Source: Pristiophorus japonicus
Taxonomy: Eukaryota
Length of the DNA stretch: 64,000 bases
Assembly (NCBI RefSeq): GCF_044704955.1
Contig: NC_091999.1
Coordinates: 53,692,001-53,756,000, forward strand
Reading direction: 5' to 3'
In this document: piece after piece, positions 14,992 to 64,000 of the stretch
Layout of the letters: every line of letters starts with the position of its first letter
Numbering within the stretch: position 1 is the stretch's first letter
Made by a program: the position numbers and the translations under genes
Notes under the pieces: generated by a model
The model's input: the letters and a program-made list of their open reading frames with translations, nothing else
The model's database searches: none
What the model was told of the DNA's origin: nothing

Positions 14992-15567
14992 TGTCGAGGA
15001 AACTTAGCTTAAATTAACTCAGGCGGAGACTTTCAGAATTTGCTTCGAGAGCAGTTTATTACTAAAACTAGCAAGATATCTTGGAGAGCCCGCTTAGTCC
15101 GTACCAAGGCAGAACTCTGAAGTTTAACAGGCAAATATGCTCTATTCTTATACTATTGAAACAGGAATTTTATCTGTAACTTACCACTCAAGTACATTAT
15201 TCATACATTCTTTGTAAATGCCATCAAAGCAAGAACTTTATCTAAAACTCCACACATAAACATTATTCATATATTCCGTGAGTACAAAGGTCATCTATTA
15301 CACATGAGCATTATTCATACATTACAAAGGTCATCCCGGTAGGCACATTTTATCTCTTTCTTGCATAGTTTCTCCCTGTCCTTTTTTGATAACCAGCTAT
15401 CTGGATACTCATATAAACACCAGATAGTCATGTATATAGAATTTTCTGTTCTTTGAGGTTGATAAGGTTCGGTAATTCTCTCCAGCTTCGTGAATTGTAC
15501 AGAGTCAGCAAAAGCGAACTTAACCCTTCCTTCAACCTAGGACAAGGATTGGGTTTCTTCTTCTACA
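14992..15567 (-). repeat. ERV 3' LTR (576 bp; TGTAG...CGACA)
   Basis: TG...CA termini on the - strand; AATAAA at 15060-15055; matches 24072-24643. Confidence 0.96.
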
Positions 15568-17672
15568 ACTCCCTCCTTGTTGATCCTTTTCAGATCAACA
15601 TTTTCCCATATGTTGGAAAAAAGGGGCTCATATCCATCCGGGTAGGGTCGCATTTCCAGGCATTTCTCCTCATCGTAATCATCGATATTTTCTTCTATGC
15701 GATTTAACCTTTCTTTTATGAACACACCCTTTCTTTCTACTCTGGATACTAGGCTCATTACTTGACCCATCAATTTTTTCACTTTTAACCATATTGCACA
15801 AATGATTATCAATAGCGCAAGCATAACTGCACCCATGATTACTATGGGGTGTATAGCCAGTTTCAATATGGCTGAGGCCCTTGGGGACCATCCGTAAAAC
15901 ACATCCCACCAGTGGCGGTCTGTTAAGGCGGTGACCTCATCAGCGATTCTTACTAGTTGTCCCTTCCTGTAAGTCATTTCAATTCTAAACTGGTGGATGT
16001 CTCTTCCTCGTTTAGAAAGAGCTTCCTCAATTTGCTTGTCATTACGTATCAAATTGTGCAGTCTGGTCAGATTAATTATAGTGGGTAGGGGGTCAATCCT
16101 GTGCACAGAGAGGTATTTTTTAACATTTTGCCATTGCCCAAAGGTATAGGTTCTTTTTTCTTCAGGGTCATACAAGGTGTATACTTCTCTTACACAAGTA
16201 TTAATGGGGGGCCTATATAGAATTCCATCCAGATAGACCGATTTATTTTCCGTCATACAGACTTCATTCGGACCAATTTCTGCAATCTCAGTGTCATTTG
16301 TCGGCCTCAGTTCCCACTTACATACTCCCGTGGGGTGTTTCAATGTACATGGTTCGTAAATGACAGTCTGATAGGGGCAGACCATCCCGAATGGCCATCT
16401 ATCACATCCCCTATGGTGATGAGTCAAATTCTTTTCATCGACCCAATCTCCTTTAAACTCCGGATACCAGAAATTCTGTCCAAACAACTGGGGCATTACT
16501 TGAAACTGACACCAACTTTCTTGCTTTGTCCTAGTTACTGTTTCCATAGTTATATTACATCCGTTTGAATCACAACTGGTATATCTTTCTTGGGGCTTAA
16601 TAGTTAAATTAAGAAGCTTATCCTTCTGATTGATTCTTAACAACCTTTCCCATGTGTCAGCATGGAAGGACAATATTTTCCTCTCCAGCTCGGCTCTCAA
16701 TAGCTGCCTGATCAGTTCTCTAAACATGCACTGGGAGTACTTATTTATTCCCTGCTGCTCCTTCATCAGGTTCTCCATCTCCTTTTCTATCCTTTCATTC
16801 TGCTTCCAGGTCATTTTGTCCGTTACGTAACCTGATACTTGTAGTTGTTGCAACCCTTCATCCCAGGCGTTCCTTATTCTTATGCCTTCTCCTACCAGTC
16901 CTCCGACGACCTGGATCTTATTTTGTAGGGCCTCAATGTCCATAGTGTTTAATGCTCCTATCCCGGCTCCTATCCCACCTAGCACAGTCCCTAACACATC
17001 CTGTTTCTTTCTCGGAGGCTTCTCTATTCTAAACGACACTTCAACATTAGTGGTGTTGCAGCCGCCTTTTTCTTTTGGAGGATATTTAATTTGAACTGTT
17101 AAATTTAATACTCCTGGGGACCTTACCACGGGGATGCAGGTGGTCAGCATCCCTTTCAAGTGTCCCGGAACTTTTGGGGAATGCTTATTTTGGTTGTGGG
17201 TCCACTGTTTAATATAAGTTATTCCGTTTATTATTTTTGTGAGATTCATACACTTTACCCATTCGCATCTTCCTATTAAGAAGTGACAATTCTCCTCTGG
17301 TCCACATAATGTGCCATTGGTTTCCTGATTCTCACCTTGGTCCGTGCTGCTCAGGCAATTCATGTCCACCTCCCAGTTTAGAGATATATTAAATCCTTCC
17401 TCACTGGTCACTTTCACCTCTCCTGATTGCTGATCTATTCCTACTCAGCAAGCTTTACACCTCACTGTGAAATTCCCTATCTTGCAGTTTTTTCGTTCTG
17501 GGCATATAAAGTTGCCTTGCTGCGTCGTCTTATCAATTTTCTACCACTTCACATCTCCCTTCCATACCTTCCCTTCTTCAAGTAATTCTTCCTCCTGTCT
17601 GACTCTCCTTACTGCTAAAAGGATTCGAACGCCCAGTGTCCATTTATAGTTCTTCCAACAATCCCACCTCAT
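15537..17672 (-). pseudogene. env: ERV envelope glycoprotein; probable ATG 17672, in-frame stops at 17543 and 17447, then 636 open codons
   Basis: RKKQ (degenerate furin site, 17012-17001) plus fusion peptide DVLGTVLGGIGAGIGALN, heptad region, Cys-rich region, HWWDVFYGWSP, TM HPIVIMGAVMLALLIIICAIWL, YEPL tail; ends 31 nt inside the LTR. Confidence 0.9.
15569..15578 (-). promoter_or_regulatory. Polypurine tract (AAGGAGGGAG)
   Basis: Purine run one base before the TG of the 3' LTR. Confidence 0.85.
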
Positions 17673-17884
17673 CTTCTCTTTTCTGTTTATTCCGATAACA
17701 CTCTTGAACTAGTTCGTTACAATAACCACACGCAAGCACGAAAGTAACAGTAACCAGAACAATGAAGGCCCAAGTTGGCGCACAAATGAGTTCGGATATT
17801 CGGCCCTGGATATAAGGGCAGGTACAGTTCTTTTAGCGAGAAGATGGCTGTTTTCTTAGTCGGGCAACCGTAGCTCGTCCTGGT

Positions 17885-20800
17885 TCAATTCTTTGCTTTC
17901 GGCTGTGATTCGTCGGGGAAATAATATTTACAACGGGTCGCATGCACCCAGTTCGGGTGCTTTTCCAACTTCAAAGCGGTTCGTGTTGTGAGGATGATCT
18001 GATATGGTCCTTTCCACCGAGGAGAAAAGGATTCTTTGTTTAAAGTTTTTACTAACACTTGCTCTCCAGGCCTAAAAGGGTGCATATTTCCTTCCGACGG
18101 GGGCACCTGTGTCTGCTTTATTTGTTCGTGCAGACTCCTTGCTATTTCACACATGGCTTGAGCATACTTTAATGATTTTTCATCATTCCAAATTAATGCT
18201 ATTTTTATAGCCACCAATGGTGGTTTTACGCCGGTAGGCATGGGTCTTCCCAGCAAGGCTTCATGTGGTGTCAAACCGGTATTTCGGTTCCTTTGGTTTC
18301 TTATCGTATACAGCACCAAAGGTAAGGCATCTGGCCACTTTAGTCCTGTCTCCTGACATACCTTGGTGAGGGTAGATTTTATTATCCCATTTACTCGCTC
18401 TACAATTCCTGAGGACTGTGGCTGATATGCTATATGTAACCTCCACTGGAATCCTAATGCTTCTGCAAGATTTTTCACTACTTTTCCTGTGAAGTGTGTT
18501 CCCCTGTCACTGTTAATTCCCATAGGTATCCCATATCTTGGTACTATTTCTTTAAATAGAATTTTTACTACTGTTCGGGCATCGTCTTTCCTGGTGGCGG
18601 ATGCTTCCACCCACCTCGTGGACATATCTACTATGACTAATAGGTACTTGAGACCTGATACTGGAGGCAAGTGAACAAAATCAATTTGTAAATTTTCAAA
18701 GGGCATACTTGGTTGGGGTAGATGATCATATTCAGCAGGTGTTTTACCTCTGTTATTTTGTTGACAAATTTGGCATGTTCTAGCACCTTTTCAATGATCA
18801 CTGTTATTCCTGGTGCATACCACTGTGCATTAATAGCTTGTATCATCCCTCCCTTGCCCATGTGAGCCTGACCGTGTGCTAGGCGAGACAGGGGCAAAAA
18901 TAGAGATCTTGGGCAAACAGTTCGCCCATCAGGGTGATACCAGATGTCGTTTTTCAGAAAACAAGTCTGGTTTTCCCAAGTCCTTCTTTCTTGCATGGTA
19001 ACTTGTTGCTGGGCTGTTTTAAGTAGTTTGGTGTCAAGTGTCTGTGGAAGGGAGACTGAGACTGCTTGAAGGCAGTTTGTCTGTGCCAAAGCGGCCTGTT
19101 TGGCTGCCTCGTCAGCCCTCCTATTTCCTACCGACACTGCATCCTTACCGGTTGTGTGAGCTGCACATTTGATAACGGCCACCCTACTTGGCAACTGAAT
19201 GGCGTCTAATAAATTAAGCACCAATTGAGAGTGCTTAATATGCTTTCCTCCAGAGGTGATAAAGCCTCTGTTTTTCCATAGTTGTCCAAAATCATGGACC
19301 ACACCAAATGCATATCTAAAATCAGTATAGGTCTTGGCAGTTTGATCTTTTGCTATTATACAAGCTCTGGTGAGGGCAAACAATTCAGCAGCCTGAGCCG
19401 AGGTTCCGGGAGGCAGGGCAAATGCTTCAACAGTTTCATGGGGGTTTACGATTGCATAGCCTGCCAAGAGTAAATCATCTGACGGCCTGTTCGACGATCC
19501 ATCTGTGTAGAGAATGAGATCAGGATTGTCCATAGGCTCTGTGAGCAAATCTGGTCTTGGCAAGGTGGCTATTTCCACTGTTAATAGACAATCATGCTGG
19601 TCTGGATCTTCTACTTCAGTAGTAGGAAGGAAAGTGGCTGGGTTTCCTACTGGTGCGCCCCGAAAGGTGTAATTAGGATGTGACAGCAGCAATACCTCAT
19701 AACCGGTTCTTCTAGATGCTGTAAAATGTTGTGTGGCAGCGGAATTCAACAGTAATAACACAGCGTGAGCTGTCACGACAGTGCATGGATAGTCCAAAAC
19801 AATAGGTACCGACTTCTCAACCATGACCGCGGTGGCTGCTACGGCACGCAGACATGCTGGCATTCCGTTTACCACTGGAGGCAGCAAAACCGAATAATAA
19901 GTCACTGGTCTATTTCCCCCACCGTGTTCTTGGGTTAGTACGGCTGTTGCGAATCCTTCCTTTTCATTTACATACAGTTGAAAAGGTTTTCCATAATTTG
20001 GAAGTCCCAGCGCCGGGGCATTAGTGATCGCTTTCTTTAACTGTTTGAATGCTTCCTCCCTCTCAGGGGTCCATTCCACCTTGGGTGGGGCATCATTCAG
20101 TGCAGCTGATCTTAGGACTGCATCCCATTCCCGATAATCAGGGATAAATTGTCTACAGTACACAACCATCCCCAAAAATGACAAGATATCCTTCTTTGTC
20201 TTAGGTATGGTGGCTTTTTGAATTGTCTGAATTATTTCTGGTCCTATGTGCCTTTGCCCTCGAGATATGCGAAAACCCAGGTACTGGACTTGAGTCTGAC
20301 AACATTGTAACTTTTGTAACGACACTCGGTGCCCTCTTTCACATAGGTGTTGTAATAGTTTCAGGGAGTCCTGCATACAACTATATCCGTGGTTGGAAGC
20401 CACAAGCAAATCGTCCGCATACTGCAGCAGTATGGCATGGTCTGAAAAGGTACAATCTTCGAGGTCTCTCTTTACTGCAGCGGCATACACTGCGGGGCTT
20501 TCTGTATACCCTTGGGGCAACCTGGTCCAGCTGTACTGCTGTTTTTTGTAGGTGTAGGCAAACAGATACTGACTCTCTTGACTTAATGGGATGGAGAAAA
20601 AGGCTCAGCACAGATCTACCACCGTAAAGACAGTTGCTGTTGGTGGGATAGCAGATAGTATAATGTTGGTGTCCGGTACCACAGGGGTGATAGGGACCAC
20701 TATCTTGTTAATAGCTCTCAGATCTTGCACAAATCTCCACTCATTTGGCCTATTAACCTTCGGTATGGGCAGTATCGGAGTGTTACACGGGCTCTGTGTC

Positions 20801-22017
20801 TTTTCTTGAACTCCTTGATCCAACAATGCAGAAATGACTGGCTTTATCCCATCTTCCGCCTCTGGAGGCAGTCTGTACTGCCTAATGCTTGGTAACACGG
20901 CGTTCTTTATCAATTGTACCCGATGGGGTACTGCAGACTCTACTTTCCCAACATGATTCTTATGTTTTGCCTAAAGTTCCGAAGATACTTGATTCAATGC
21001 CATTGGCAGCTTAGGGCTCGGTTGCTCAGGGGACTGCTGTTTTTTAAAAGTGGAGGCATGACCCTTACCCTTCCACCAGAGAATCCCACTATTGCGGGTG
21101 ATACATTCTATCTGAACAGTTTGTAATCCTATTACTGCCCAAGGTTTATAATCTGGTTGCTGTTTTTCATTATCGATTTCCACGATCATTGGACCCATAT
21201 CTCTGGGATTCGCCGGCGGTTTTACGGCTAATGTCAAATGGGGTGTCGAGTTTTCTTCTTTAAACCGCTCCTGCTGTAATGGTGTCAAATCCATGGCTAC
21301 CCCTAATCCTTCTGGTCCGAAATAGATACGGGGTGTGGCTTCTATTATCTCTTCTTTGTTGAGAGAGGGCTGTATTAAGCACTGGTAAGTTTCAGCTTTC
21401 TGTCGAGTGTACCAGGCTGTGCAGTGAAGCTGAACTGCCTCAAAGCTTGTTAAAATTATATACATCAATTCTTCGGTATTAGAGTCGAATTTAGTTTTGA
21501 ATTTTTGTATTATCTCATGTATAAAAGGGGAATAGAAGTTGCCATTCAACTGCCAATAATAGAGAGTCGCCGTTTCTTTGCTCTCTTCCCCCTTTTCCCC
21601 CTCAGTCCCTTTGAGGAATTGATGGATTTTATTAGGTGGGAGTTCCATGAACATTCCCTCCTGTGTACAATAAATTGTGGCTCCCAATTTACATAAAGTC
21701 TGTCGTCCTAATAAAGGGAGAGGCGCTGTTTTAGAGACTATCAAAGCTTCGTCATTAACCTGTTGTCCTTCAATAATCAATCTGGTAGGTTCAGATAAAA
21801 AATATTTCATGGGGATACCGGCCACGCCCATGCTTAAGACGGTTGTGTTGCTTACAGATAATCCCACAGAGGGTGGTACAGAAGACATAGTAGCACCGGT
21901 ATCCACCAGGAACTTCACATAAGTGTTCCCTATTTTTACTACTGCTGGAGGGTTTTCTTCTATGTCGGCTGATAAGCGGAGGGCTGCCGCTTGTACCACC
22001 ATGCCTCCGGGGCATCC
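17885..22017 (-). pseudogene. pol: ERV pro-pol: protease, 2H phosphodiesterase, RT, RNase H, integrase; stops at 20973 and 20607, frameshift near 18778
   Basis: FLVDTGA (D codon at 21903), LLGR, LPQGYTESP, QYADDLL (YADD 20421-20410), YTDGS/SAQAAEL/IKCAAH, H..H..CQIC, IDF/SDRG/VER integrase core, WKGPY. ORFs 20971..22002, 20605..20913 and 18637..20520 share one frame. Confidence 0.97.
21040..21570 (-). other. CNPase-like 2H phosphodiesterase domain inside Pol
   Basis: Two HxT motifs, LHCTAWY (His codon 21426) and PHLTLAV (His codon 21240), 62 aa apart, with intervening IYFGPEGLGVAMDL matching the vertebrate CNPase pattern. Confidence 0.85.
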
Positions 22018-23723
22018 CTATGCTGATTGGTGTGGGTTGGGGTTCGAGAACGAAAACTGAGGGATCAATGAAGGTGGAGGTTCGGGCAAGTTCCCTTGTA
22101 ACCTTCCAGGCTGCTTCGGTGGGCATCTGCAATCCCGGGCCCAATGTCCTTTTCTTCCACAATTTCTACACTCATCTTGGGATCGATCTCGTGATTCCCA
22201 CTGTATCTTCCCCTTCCTCGTCCTTATCCCCCAAACCCTCCTTTATTATTCTGTGTGTACCCTCTTCCTTTTTGCTGATAGTATTGACCTGTCGTTTTGG
22301 CCTTATTGTCTCTGTAGGTGAATAGTCCCTCTCTATCCATATTGGCTAGTACTGTAATGGTCTCTTTCCAACCGTTTCCTTGCCAGTCTAGAACCTTTAT
22401 ATTATAGGTTCTCGCGTGTTGTTGAAACATACAATTTAACAAGGTTTGTACTGCCAATGGTTCATGTTGATCCATGGGTATTCTGGCATGTTCGTCCCAA
22501 CTATTTTTCCATCTGCCGGCGAAGTCTATCATTGATTCTTCGGCCTTCTGTAAGCAGCGGGTGACTTCCCCTATATCCCCATGCTTTTTAGCCCCTTGCA
22601 TAACTGCATTCTTTCCTCGGTGTTTCAGCCAATGGTTTAATGACTCATTGCCGGCCTCTACCAAGTCATCATTAACTCTCCAGTCTCCGTGTTCCCCTGC
22701 TGGGATGGGGAACATATCCTTTACCCCCTGCCAGGAAGATCCATAGGCTGCTTGCAATAGTAATTTAACATCTCCTCGGAGTGGATTGTAAATTGTACAT
22801 GTTTACTCAAGCCAGTTGTGGAATGCTACCGGTTTCTTCACCGGATTTGGGGCGGCCGAGATCATATCTCTGGCTTCTCCGGGGGACCATGGTTTTAAGA
22901 CTGCAGTAGTTCCTATTATTACCCGAGGCAGTTGTACAGTAGAATCGGCCTGTGCCTGTTCTCCTTCTCGTTCTCTGGCCGTTTGCAGCCTTGTTGGATA
23001 GGGATTTCTTTCTCCCTGGTCCCAACTTACTTCTCCGTGCTCTATAGGTCTAGCTTCCCCTGCCCCTGATGCTTCCGGGTTTACTCCACCGGCCCCGTCA
23101 TTAGGTGACCGAGCCGGAGGGGCTGCTAGTTCCCTCGGAGCTTGATTTCTATGGGCAGTGATTATTTCTATAAGTTCCTGCCAGCTATCTTGTTTTGGGG
23201 GTTTTATGCGAGGGTAAAGTCCTACTACAGGTGCTGAGGGGATAGGAAAACCCGGAGGACTGTAAGAGGGAGGGTTTTCACCTTTTCCCTTTTCTTTTCC
23301 TTCCGGTTTAATTTTGGGGGGTTGATGCCTCTTGGCAACCTCTGTCCATTTTTTAAAACAGTTTTCCATGTAGTCCTTATCCCATGTAGGATCTCCCCCT
23401 TCTTCTCTGGTTATTTTTCTCCATTCCTCTATTAAGGATAACTTAAAACTTCCTCCATACGGCCAGTCCCCATCAGACCAACCGTACAAATCGCTGCTAA
23501 ACGTTACCGCGTATCTGTCGTCTCCGGTTTCTTTAATTACAGTGTCCGCCGGCGAGACGGGCGGCACGATGGGATCTCCTACCTTCTCTCGTTGCTTTAT
23601 TACCTTACGGATTTTCTTCTCGGTTTGAGGATTTAACTTCATTCTTTCAGTCGAGGGATCGTCCTTCTTTCCTTCTCTAGGAACTAGGCGTAAGCGCCCT
23701 GCTCGACTAGAGCCATTTCCCAT
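22018..23723 (-). pseudogene. gag: ERV gag; stops at 22805 and 22226, frameshift between ~22200 and 22170; terminal TAG in frame with pro
   Basis: MGNGSS myristoylation signal, WPYGGSF matrix motif, PPSY/PSAP/LYPRI late motifs, QKAEESMIDFAGR MHR-like motif, CRNCGRKGHWARDC knuckle (22170-22129), TAG GGA TGC CCC readthrough context. Confidence 0.95.
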
Positions 23724-24048
23724 TATTCCGGGTGCAACTTCTCGCGGTTTTTTTTCGGAAATGAGAGTTAGAACACTCCTACAAAATATACAATAATTTA
23801 CAAAAGCGCTCACCGGTGTTCTCTTTTCCGCTCAGCTCGGAGTCTCCTTTGTGCCTTTTTGTTACTTTAGCTTCTTTACGGTAGCTACCTTAAATGCCTC
23901 ACCCCCTCCAGGGGATCTCGGCGGCCTGTCCTTTGTCTTTTGGACTGCCTAGGTACCTTCCTCCTTTCAGCTAGGAAGGTCCTCTTTTTAATTCCTCTTT
24001 TCTTTAAAAGTGACATTTTAGTTATTTTTTGGATCTCGTTTAAAAGTG

Positions 24049-61139: not shown

Positions 61140-61230
61140 GAAGGTGTGACGTGGATCCAGAAACCGCCCCTATCAGGGAATCAATGGGCGGCGTCTGTAA
61201 CCTCGCCCCCAGCTCCCGGGTATTTAACTG
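61140..61230 (+). promoter_or_regulatory. IgH V promoter: CRE-like TGACGTG (61147), GC boxes (61164, 61186), TATTTAA (61221); no octamer
   Basis: Motifs seen 90-170 bp upstream of the leader ATG; chondrichthyan IgH promoters are known to use a CRE-like element rather than the octamer. Confidence 0.75.
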
Positions 61231-61318
61231 CTGTCACTGGGACCGCAATACAACAGTCCGGGGGTGGGTTTGCCCAGTGAGTTCTTGCCGGAACCATTCA
61301 CCACACATTGCCAGGAGG

Positions 61319-61364
61319 ATGAGGTCGGCGATTGCGCTCAGTCTGTTGCTGGCTTTCTTTTCCC
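61319..61364 (+). CDS. IGHV: IgH V leader exon (MRSAIALSLLLAFFS)
   Basis: Signal peptide, phase-1 GTGAGT donor at 61365, 126-bp intron. Confidence 0.95.
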
Positions 61365-61490
61365 GTGAGTAGTTTTTATCGTCCAATCTCTCACTGTTAC
61401 TGTCTCAGTGTTAGTCTCTCTCTGGAATGTTACAGAGTCAGGAATGATTTCACCAGGATTGATCCTCGGAGTTTTTGATTATTTTTACAG

Positions 61491-61796
61491 GTGTCCACTC
61501 GGATGTGGTGTTGACTCAGTCCGAGGCAGAGACCAGGATTCCCGGAGGCTCCCTGAGAGTGACCTGTAAAACCAGCGGCTTCAATCTTGGTGGCACCTCG
61601 ATGTACTGGGTCCGCCAGGTTCCCGGACAGGGGCTAGAGTGGCTGGTTTACTACGACAGTCCATCGAGCAAGTATTACGTCCCAGGGATTGAGAGACGAT
61701 TTACTGCGTCCAAAGACACTTCAAACAACATCTTCACGTTGGACATGAAGAAACTGAAGAGCGAAGACACCGCCATCTATTACTGTGCAAGGGACC
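61491..61796 (+). CDS. IGHV: IgM-type heavy-chain variable exon, open and intact
   Basis: TTTTACAG acceptor; [56 protein letters not shown], typical of shark IgM VH. Confidence 0.98.
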
Positions 61797-61835
61797 CACA
61801 GCGAGATGAACCAGGGCTGGACCCGTACAAAAACA
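61797..61835 (+). promoter_or_regulatory. VH recombination signal, 23-bp spacer (CACAGCG-23-ACAAAAACA)
   Basis: Counted directly. Confidence 0.95.
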
Positions 61836-62234
61836 GATCGAGGGGGAATTCAACAACTTCCATCATAACGGTCAGTAATTGTGTCAAATGCAATGTTACC
61901 CGCAGTGTACAGAACAATACCATAAACCGCTTCTTACAAAACTAACACACTGAGAATTAAATGGGAAAATCTAACACACTAACCCATCGACGGAGGGGAG
62001 GTTTGATTGTGCTCCTGTTTAATGTTAAAGTGTCAGCAATTGCAGAGCTGGAAATGATACTCGATTCACTGTGCCTGGTACATGCAGGGAGTTGGGTAGA
62101 ACTGTGTTTACTCTCTAGTGTGTTGTGCAAACTGTTGGCTAAATTCTAAACTTGATCAGAAGCGAATGTGTATGTGAAGTGAATGTCTATTTGACGTGAA
62201 TGTTGAGAGTCAGTACTGAGCAGAGAGTGAGTGC

Positions 62235-62317
62235 AGTATATGTGCGGGTTCCTGTCACTGTGGGACTACAGCAGTGGGCCACGGTGGTATACAGAGCGAG
62301 CTCTCAATACAAAAACC
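62235..62317 (+). other. IGHD: DH (D1-type) segment GGACTACAGCAGTGGGC (62263-62279) with 12-RSS and 22-RSS
   Basis: AGTATATGT-12-CACTGTG on the 5' side; CACGGTG-22-ACAAAAACC on the 3' side. Confidence 0.93.
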
Positions 62318-62652
62318 CCAGACAGGGAGTTTGGTCAAACCTGCGATCATTAAAACGCCAGGAGCGTCGAAGGAACTGAGGCTTAAATAAAAATAAATAG
62401 AAGTAAAATATTTATCTATCTATATATATATATATATATATATTTAAATGCATAAAAGTTTTCTTCTTTATTACTATTGATTGCCATGCTGAATCTGCAC
62501 AGATGCTTCAGAATTATTCCAATCATTTTTGTAAATATAATGAACGGTACAAAATGAAATATCTCGCTGAGTCACTCTTACAGGAGTCGGAATCGGGTTT
62601 TTAGAGCTGGGTGGAATTTAATCTCTGTATTTTACAGTTAACAGTCCACCGG

Positions 62653-62680
62653 AGTATGTGACACGACGTGTCTCACTGTG
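62653..62680 (+). promoter_or_regulatory. RSS in front of JH, best fit 12-bp spacer (AGTATGTGA-12-CACTGTG)
   Basis: Nonamer matches the D 5' nonamer at 7/9; positions expected for 22/23 spacers (AGTCCACCG/CAGTCCACC) are not nonamer-like. Confidence 0.7.
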
Positions 62681-62730
62681 TAACGCAATGGACTACTGGG
62701 GACAAGGGACCATGGTGACGGTGACTGCAA
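62681..62730 (+). CDS. IGHJ: JH segment (NAMDYWGQGTMVTVTA), possibly germline-joined D2J
   Basis: WGQG motif, phase-1 GTAAGG donor at 62731. Confidence 0.96.
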
Positions 62731-62769
62731 GTAAGGAACATTCACTCATTCAGTGACTCTTGTATTTGT

Positions 62770-64000
62770 GTCTTTATTTTATATTTCTGTTTATTTTAAT
62801 AATTATTTTTTTCACTGAAATTTGGGTTCGGTGGATTTTGTTTTGAGAATTTTTTTGCAATGTTCAATGTTATTCTGCTGCAAAGTGATTATAGAATTCA
62901 ACTGTTTCTCCACTGAAAATGTTGTTGGTGTGATTTGGTATTTATTTGCTGACGAGACATGTGCCTGGGTTACTCTAAATACGTTATGGCTTTTACACTG
63001 TTTGATGTTTCTGCAATATTTAATTTTGGTGACCTCTAATTGCTGCAGTTTTTCTGATCGAATGCAAACATTGTGTATAAATATGTTTAAAAGAACATTG
63101 TAGGCACAAAACAGAAAGCTTAGCGATCAGTAAATAAGCTTAAGGAATTTTAAGTTTTTTTTTAATGCAAATTGCATTGTCATCTACTGACCGAATGTTT
63201 CCGAACGCTCAGATTCAATACATGAGATGCTACTGTACTTAAGAACTGGAAAATTAACATATTTCACGCTAGGACACAGTTAAATTAATATTATTAACAT
63301 TAATATAATGTAGCAATATCACCACGTTTTATTAAATATGCTATAATATCAACATTAATGTATTAAACATGATCCGTTTGATCGCAATTCTGCTTTCATT
63401 ATTTTATATTTCTGTTGAATTCAATCTTTAGTTATTTCAGTGTTAGGCGGGTTTGGTGATTGTGTAATGAGATTTTTTGCAATGATACATTTGATTCTGC
63501 TGAAAGGGTTTATAAAATGAAGCGTCTGCTCCATGAAAGGTTCTGTCGAGGGATTTCGCCCCTCAGTGATGTGATTTAGTGTTGATCTGCTGAGGAGAGG
63601 TATGCCTGTGTTACTCAGAATACCTATAATTTGTGAAACTGTTTGGCGTTTCTACAATGTTTAATATCAGTGCCAGCGGGTAGCATCAGGTTTCTGCTCG
63701 AATGCAAACACGATATGTGTTTGAAACTGTTTGAAAACAGATTATAGGCAGAGAACAGGACGGGTTTAGAAATCAGAAATCATTGAAAGGTATTTTAACA
63801 TAACAATTATACAAGTGATAAATATATATTCAACTATTAATCTATCTTTACGATGCTGATATTTTATTGTGTGAAATGTAACTAATTTCCATCTACATAA
63901 TTAATGTGTTCAGGTTGTAGTTGAATTAAATTAATATTAAGCAACCGATTATAATGCGATAATATCTCCCAGTGTTGTTAAAATATGCTATAAGTCTAAT
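62770..64000 (+). repeat. Old ~625-650-bp tandem duplication in the J-C intron
   Basis: Paired anchors ATATTTCTGT 62781/63406, AATGCAAACA 63061/63701, AAATATGCTATAA 63334/63982. Confidence 0.75.

Follow-up and report, generated by a model that had tools for sequence, protein, structure and literature searches.

The window, i.e. the whole 64-kb stretch of Pristiophorus japonicus DNA that was analysed, carries one immunoglobulin heavy-chain cluster, located on the + strand at its 3' end (Table 1). No second Ig cluster was detected in the 64 kb by tblastn and blastn searches combined with a J-motif scan. The cluster starts with an IgM-type leader and a VH exon with a 23-RSS, as a canonical minilocus does. 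In protein searches, the leader matched the horn shark leader of P0001, and the VH was 74% identical to a VH of Heterodontus (horn shark) and 81% identical to a sawshark gene model; no identical V was returned. The full-length IgM P0027 has a V with 74% identity, a J reading YAMDYWGQG and a long CDR3, and it cannot be tied to the window cluster. A metagenome scan gave no VH relatives among 252 pattern matches. Judged by the likeness of its V and J, the cluster is probably a shark IgM-type gene; the window ends 1.3 kb past J, and the Cmu exons lie outside it. Upstream of the leader, positions 61169-61226 hold promoter-like elements, namely a CAAT-like box, GC boxes and a TATTTAA box.

The J-C intron comprises a diverged tandem duplication (62771-63153 and 63396-63798, 68% identity, period of ~625 bp), and the duplicate copy contains no second J. 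Positions 1-60000 are without an Ig gene and consist mostly of LINE-like reverse transcriptase fragments, seen in ORF translations, and of satellite-like repeats in tandem; three sized N gaps interrupt the stretch. An endogenous retrovirus lies on the - strand at 15537-23831. It encodes, in several frames, a protease, a reverse transcriptase/RNase H and an integrase with an MLV-type C-terminal domain (Pfam). Frames that resemble gag lie upstream of these, and a frame of 635 aa resembles env but has no Pfam match.

Table 1 Features of the IgH cluster (positions in the window)
Feature	Positions	Strand	Details
Leader exon	61319..61364	+	MRSAIALSLLLAFFS and first base of an Arg codon; open frame; read from sequence; GT donor at 61365
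VH exon	61491..61796	+	open frame; both Cys and FR2 Trp present; Pfam V-set; IgM-like
V 23-RSS	61797..61835	+	heptamer CACAGCG (1 mismatch), 23-nt spacer, nonamer with 1 mismatch
D1 5' 12-RSS	62235..62262	-	heptamer perfect, nonamer with 3 mismatches
D1 coding segment	62263..62279	+	17 nt, unjoined
D1 3' 22-RSS	62280..62317	+	heptamer CACGGTG, nonamer perfect
D1-D2 intersegment	62318..62652	+	without RSS; (TA)n repeat at 62408-62443
12-RSS before JH (D2 5' RSS)	62653..62680	-	heptamer perfect (62674-62680), nonamer with 4 mismatches; assigned from sibling contigs
Junction	62681..62682	+	TA in window; TT in the deeper family of siblings; no bases in a second sibling contig
JH	62683..62730	+	NAMDYWGQGTMVTVTA; open frame AMDYWGQGTMVTVTA; putative start at 62683
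J splice donor	62731..62736	+	GTAAGG; exon base -1 is A, G in all aligned contigs

Canonical elasmobranch IgM miniloci have a D1 with a 5' 12-RSS and a 3' 22/23-RSS, and D1 of the window cluster is built in the same way. V is not fused to D1; the two are separated by 466 nt and their RSSs are intact. To locate further segments, 61700-62800 was scanned on both strands for RSSs with at most 2 heptamer and at most 4 nonamer mismatches and with spacers of 11-13 and 22-24 nt. This permissive scan detected no RSS between 62318 and 62652. It thereby agrees with a preliminary description of the locus, in which no second RSS-flanked D was seen in this interval, and confirms the overall layout given there (V23 / 12-D-22 / 12-J without a second D). 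The distance of ~340 bp reported from D to JH holds from RSS to RSS (62317 to 62653), whereas the end of D1 and the junction are 401 nt apart.

JH of the window cluster lacks a 22/23-RSS of its own: the nonamer before it has 4 mismatches at a spacer of 12 nt and 7-8 at spacers of 22-24 nt. This nonamer is identical to the D1 5' nonamer at 7 of 9 positions, and the aligned D1 and J flanks are alike only in nonamer and heptamer. Taken alone it is weak evidence, since 6.6% of the 9-mers in the window reach 4 mismatches or fewer; the firm identification of the RSS comes from sibling contigs (see below), and none of the 15 other perfect heptamers in the window has such a nonamer at a 12-nt spacer. 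At a spacer of 14 nt, the nonamer has 3 mismatches. A 14-nt spacer is not physiological. The earlier claim that the element fits only a 12-bp spacer with a D-like nonamer is thus right against 22-24 nt and slightly overstated with regard to 14 nt.

Seven public sequencing runs matched 61300-62800, none of them listed as an RNA run. Four of these, all from one sample, contain about half of the words of this region. Contigs of the runs X1, X3, X4 and X5 were aligned to 61740-62860 at 80% likeness, and the results below refer to the best 26 of 330 aligned pieces, 20 of 63 loose ends and 40 of 159 difference rows. Runs X1, X3 and X4 represent one sample, of which the tissue is not stated and which is perhaps the source of the assembly itself. 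The region 62386-62423 is uncovered because the alignment skips repeats, and this gap is evidence neither way; none of the aligned contigs runs through the (TA)n repeat. From X5, another sample, came one contig in which a different V is joined to J and followed by Cmu1-like sequence (translation by eye). This contig resembles the spliced transcript of a different cluster and has no bearing on the window cluster.

Contigs of both X1 and X3 that lie on the flank before JH diverge from the window at 62680 and continue into a 13-nt D2, GTACAGTGGGTGG, followed by a heptamer CACAGCA. These contigs identify the flank, at the level of sequence, as the one that lies 5' of D2 in ordinary siblings with two Ds. 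A free D2 between two RSSs is thus present in the siblings and absent from the window cluster. The siblings show the flank before D2 and not as a normal J RSS, which leaves the D2-J reading of the preliminary description standing. The possibility that J has a native 12-RSS was rejected, as the flank continues into D2. In X3, J is also found unjoined, behind a heptamer of its own and with another flank before it; this J starts with AC and aligns to 62683 at equal length. Among the 13 joints listed, 9 end in J and none of these begins upstream of 62683. Together with the equal-length alignment, this places the probable start of JH at 62683, although the 20 of 63 loose ends show a single start of an unjoined J and a single D2 sequence. 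The junction in the window would then consist of an intact D2 heptamer, 2 nt and an apparently untrimmed J. The stretch TAACGCAATG, previously taken for D2/N remnants, is mostly J sequence; J covers all of it but 62681-62682, and the former reading was rejected. The two remaining nucleotides fit a D2 remnant, P bases or N bases. What the window cluster has lost is the D2 body with its 3' RSS, the spacer between D2 and J, and the RSS that belonged to J, and the break sits at the heptamer edge: two segments are fused, and the RSSs and spacer between them are gone. Both the D2 and the J heptamer are the same 7-mer, CACTGTG. We take it that a canonical J carries a 23-type RSS and D2 a 3' 12-RSS; the contigs showed heptamers, not spacers.

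The same junction position recurs in other copies. Contig X3#16 (depth 181.7) bridges it from 62459 to 62719 with 12 substitutions and X4#22 (depth 111.4) from 62457 to 62719 with 13 substitutions, both with 0 gaps, with TT instead of TA and with more than 31 letters on either side of the junction. The TT variant also occurs in X1 at a depth of 108.1. A second form, in which no base separates the heptamer from J (0-nt form), is present in X1 (X1#7, depth 40.8) and in X3 (74.9), and is not among the aligned X4 contigs. Contigs identical to the window upstream have depths of 35, 67-71 and 35 (X1, X3 and X4), and contigs bridging D2 flank and J are ~3x deeper. With the caveat that contig depth is not copy number, joined contigs make up about half of the flank depth (148.9 of 290.6 in X1, 256.6 of 474.4 in X3 and 111.4 of 246.5 in X4), the remainder probably belonging to D2-bearing siblings, judging from where those contigs end. 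The window copy itself differs from every aligned contig at 62489, 62494, 62514, 62582, 62658 and 62730, and its exact allele is not among them. The D2-J join is likely germline, inherited and duplicated rather than somatic, since the same junction position is found in deep contigs, which would not be expected of a somatic joint confined to one clone. The germline origin proposed in the preliminary description is accordingly regarded as likely, based on deep bridging contigs in three libraries of one sample.

As for the way in which the join arose, RAG would have joined D2 to J in the germ cell of an ancestor, with D2 trimmed to at most 2 bases, and the joined form would then have been inherited and duplicated among the cluster copies. 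Such a germline RAG-made coding joint, with D2 trimmed away, is the account towards which we lean modestly; we infer RAG as the agent, a germ cell as the place of origin and an ordinary coding joint over a hybrid joint. The contigs of X1, X3 and X4 also contain a V-D1 join, four D1..J joints and V..J joints with N-like bases; as far as contig sequences tell, RAG-type joining is pervasive in this sample. Three of the four D1-anchored joints retain 4-6 of the 17 D1 bases, so a loss of 11-13 nt from the 3' end of a D occurs here, with the reservation that these D1..J joints, used as a yardstick for trimming, have depths of 5-45 and could be somatic. The sibling D2 starts with GTAC and J with AC, and a GT remnant with an overlap at AC is one substitution away from the TT family. 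Compared to the GT of D2, the TT and TA junctions show one or two substitutions, and the 0-nt sibling retains no base. The bases between heptamer and J, 2 nt or none, are compatible with a D2 remnant, P/N bases or later mutation. Against a coding joint stand the absence of any recognisable D2 base and a break that falls precisely on the heptamer edge, which is what a hybrid joint would give. If the 0-nt contig is independent, exact total trimming would have happened twice, which is unlikely.

The preliminary description offered two mechanisms, a RAG-made germline join and a deletion between the two heptamers. A third route, the deletional hybrid joint, was missed there. In this case, the D2 5' 12-RSS would have paired with the J 23-RSS in the germline and the signal end would have been joined to the J coding end. 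Both RSSs have the same orientation, 0-2 P/N bases would be added and the RSS of J would change from 23 to 12 in one step. The pair obeys the 12/23 rule, and an intact 12-class signal end is indeed found joined to a coding end of the other class (J being presumed to be of the 23 class). The intact heptamer on an untrimmed J, the 2 or 0 extra bases and the lack of a D2 trace all speak for this route, the T beside the first A of J in the TT family can be read as a P base, and the 0-nt form is explained as well. It does require that the D2 5' RSS, which to judge from mammalian work is rarely used, pairs with J. The heavy trimming of D 3' ends in three of four D1-anchored joints means that an ordinary joint suffices, and both types of joint can yield an identical sequence. 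One germline hybrid joint, an inversion between D1 and D2, is described for horned shark/skate in PMC2193153 (citing Kokubu 1988), where RSS swapping is proposed and hybrid joints are named as the less common outcome. There too, a signal end at a new coding end changes the RSS type of a segment; that case is an inversion between D segments, whereas the event in the window would be a deletion giving J a 12-RSS, or else an ordinary coding joint. We consider the hybrid joint a serious contender, yet clearly less probable than the coding joint.

A further question concerns the layout and is compatible with any mechanism. The window could be a mosaic, due to assembly or to a crossover, of an unjoined V-D1 half and the 3' half of a VD1-D2J cluster, joined at the (TA)n repeat. 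The linkage of an unjoined V-D1 to a joined D2J is taken from the assembly, and the scaffold contains gaps (N runs of 213, 151 and 152). Moreover, the V-D1 join has depths of 83.7, 173.5 and 92.6 in X1, X3 and X4, close to those of the main D2J family (108.1, 181.7 and 111.4), so many copies may be of the classical VD1-D2J type. Identity to the aligned contigs is also patchy, with 0-1 differences over 61929-62382 versus ~5% over 62459-62719. On the other hand, a repeat of ~36 nt is within the span of short reads, and the 3' half of the window does not reproduce the deep family. The summed joined depth (148.9, 256.6 and 111.4) exceeds that of the V-D1 join in all three runs, a weak argument given that depth is not copy number. 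A mosaic is judged unlikely.

Improbable is an origin without RAG, in which the identical D2 and J heptamers recombined by deletion or by unequal crossover. The same 7-mer is present at both sites, and the predicted product is exactly the 0-nt sibling contig. The 2 extra bases in the window and in the deeper family are left unexplained by such a deletion and would require a later insertion at the same spot, and RAG-type joins with N bases abound in the sample. Of the two mechanisms proposed at first, the RAG join thus fits better.

Somatic V-D-DJ intermediates are known from shark thymus and spleen (PMC2435157, in part), and one of these could in principle have been caught in the assembly from lymphocyte DNA. 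The junction position recurs in three DNA libraries, in two forms, in contigs that are deeper than the window-identical ones and ~5% diverged from the window, whereas somatic joints are unique to each clone (PMC2435157, in part). A somatic origin, which we hold to be very improbable, was rejected on account of these recurrent, deep and diverged junction contigs. A separate ancient single-D IgH design, in which a 12-RSS belonged to J from the start, as it does in TCR beta/delta, has the formal V23 / 12-D-22 / 12-J order in its favour and is hardly credible, as the flank is highly identical to the D2 flank of two-D siblings and its RSS is derived, with the divergence at 62680 contradicting such a design.

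Partly joined germline clusters are known from cartilaginous fishes, as the preliminary description stated. Horned shark and little skate have VDD-J, VDJ or VD1-D2J germline clusters (PMC2193153, in part), a review mentions germline VD-J and VD-DJ clusters (excerpts of PMC5192425), and VD-J and VDJ clusters also appear in excerpts of PMC4279169 and PMC3308330; PMC12227049 contributed nothing further about joined H clusters. Since germline D2J joins are in print as VD1-D2J and VD-DJ (PMC2193153 and PMC5192425, in part), the novelty claimed earlier was overstated. According to excerpts of PMC2193156, germline joins are made by RAG and show short deletions, P bases and sparse N addition, and adult expression of joined H genes of the horned shark was not detected. 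The window cluster resembles the part-joined clusters of horned shark and skate in having an inherited fusion at RSS boundaries beside unjoined siblings, and it shares its D2-J join with the VD1-D2J clusters. It differs in that, according to the assembly, V has not been joined to D1, and in that D2 is unrecognisable, so that two somatic joins, or a direct V-J join, are still possible. The same configuration, with the same set of remaining RSSs, arises in the nurse shark as a somatic one-step V-D-DJ (1R) product or intermediate; that product is clone-specific and absent from red-cell DNA, whereas the join in the window appears inherited and multi-copy (PMC2435157, in part). The literature searched, mainly open papers without the 1988 and 1990 primary reports, yielded neither a germline V-D1-D2J cluster nor a second germline hybrid joint, which does not establish their absence from print. 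The joined forms observed in the sample are V-D1 (at high depth), D1..J with an unjoined D1 5' flank (V-D1D2J type), V..J and the two D2-flank/J junctions. On contig evidence, this lineage may have an unusually complete set of part-joined IgM clusters, of which the low-depth forms could be somatic.

The TCR-beta/delta-like geometry noted in the preliminary description is correct as to RSS order. TCR beta/delta (V23, 12-D-23, 12-J) and the window cluster, with a D1 spacer of 22, have the same formal order, in which the 12/23 rule alone allows V-D-J as well as V-J joining. The likeness ends there: the window holds a single Ig cluster and not a TCR locus, and the 12-RSS of its JH is the D2 5' RSS, so that the unit resembles a finished DJ. 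In TCR beta, J has its own 12-RSS, which is barred from V by a restriction beyond 12/23; V can use the 12-RSS of D and not that of J (PMC2642999, in part). By analogy, a block on direct V-J joining is not expected in the window cluster, because its J-side 12-RSS is D-derived.

In B cells, the cluster would work as a pre-made DJ and would need either two joins (V-D1 and D1-J) or one (V to the 12-RSS). The untrimmed CDR3 template was computed as 43 nt via D1 and 26 nt for direct V-J joining, compared to ~54 nt (10+17+13+14) in a canonical sibling; the window cluster would have one junction fewer. The D-less joins and the bias toward short CDR3s put forward in the preliminary description have the standing of predictions. 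A precise V-J join of 26 nt would be out of frame, so an in-frame precise product was rejected. Joining of V to the D2 5' 12-RSS is already 12/23-legal in canonical clusters, where it represents the D1-skipping step, and a D-less product is predicted to be the sole novelty of this step in the window cluster.

The window copy is possibly partly decayed, to judge by its sequence. Position 4 of the J-side nonamer (62658) is C in the window and A in all aligned contigs, and further changes of a decay type affect the D1 3' heptamer (62283) and the exon base before the J donor (62730), both as given in Table 1. A variant in the D1 5' nonamer, at 62240, is common to some contigs. In mammalian data, a purine-A/T-purine pattern is favoured at nonamer positions 4-6 (PMC12711392, in part), and the J-side nonamer of the siblings also falls short of this full, mammalian-derived pattern.

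The window cluster likely adds V-D1-D2J to the inherited part-joined configurations of shark IgH. In that case it also shows that a cluster joined in the germline can keep its capacity for rearrangement, now with a different order of RSSs. If the join is a hybrid joint, it would be the second known germline case of RSS swapping, and a deletional one; such swapping has been proposed as a route between locus layouts. More speculatively, and we regard this as doubtful, a hybrid joint, perhaps formed twice (2-nt and 0-nt forms), would have made a heritable active family with a signal order of the TCR-beta/delta type and D-less V-J chains. If true, this family would be RSS swapping caught in the act and would bear on the 12/23 layouts of Ig versus TCR. 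The cluster also lends itself, as a natural experiment, to asking whether direct V-to-J joining occurs in shark IgH where 12/23 permits it, and whether such clusters supply short-CDR3, low-diversity antibodies.
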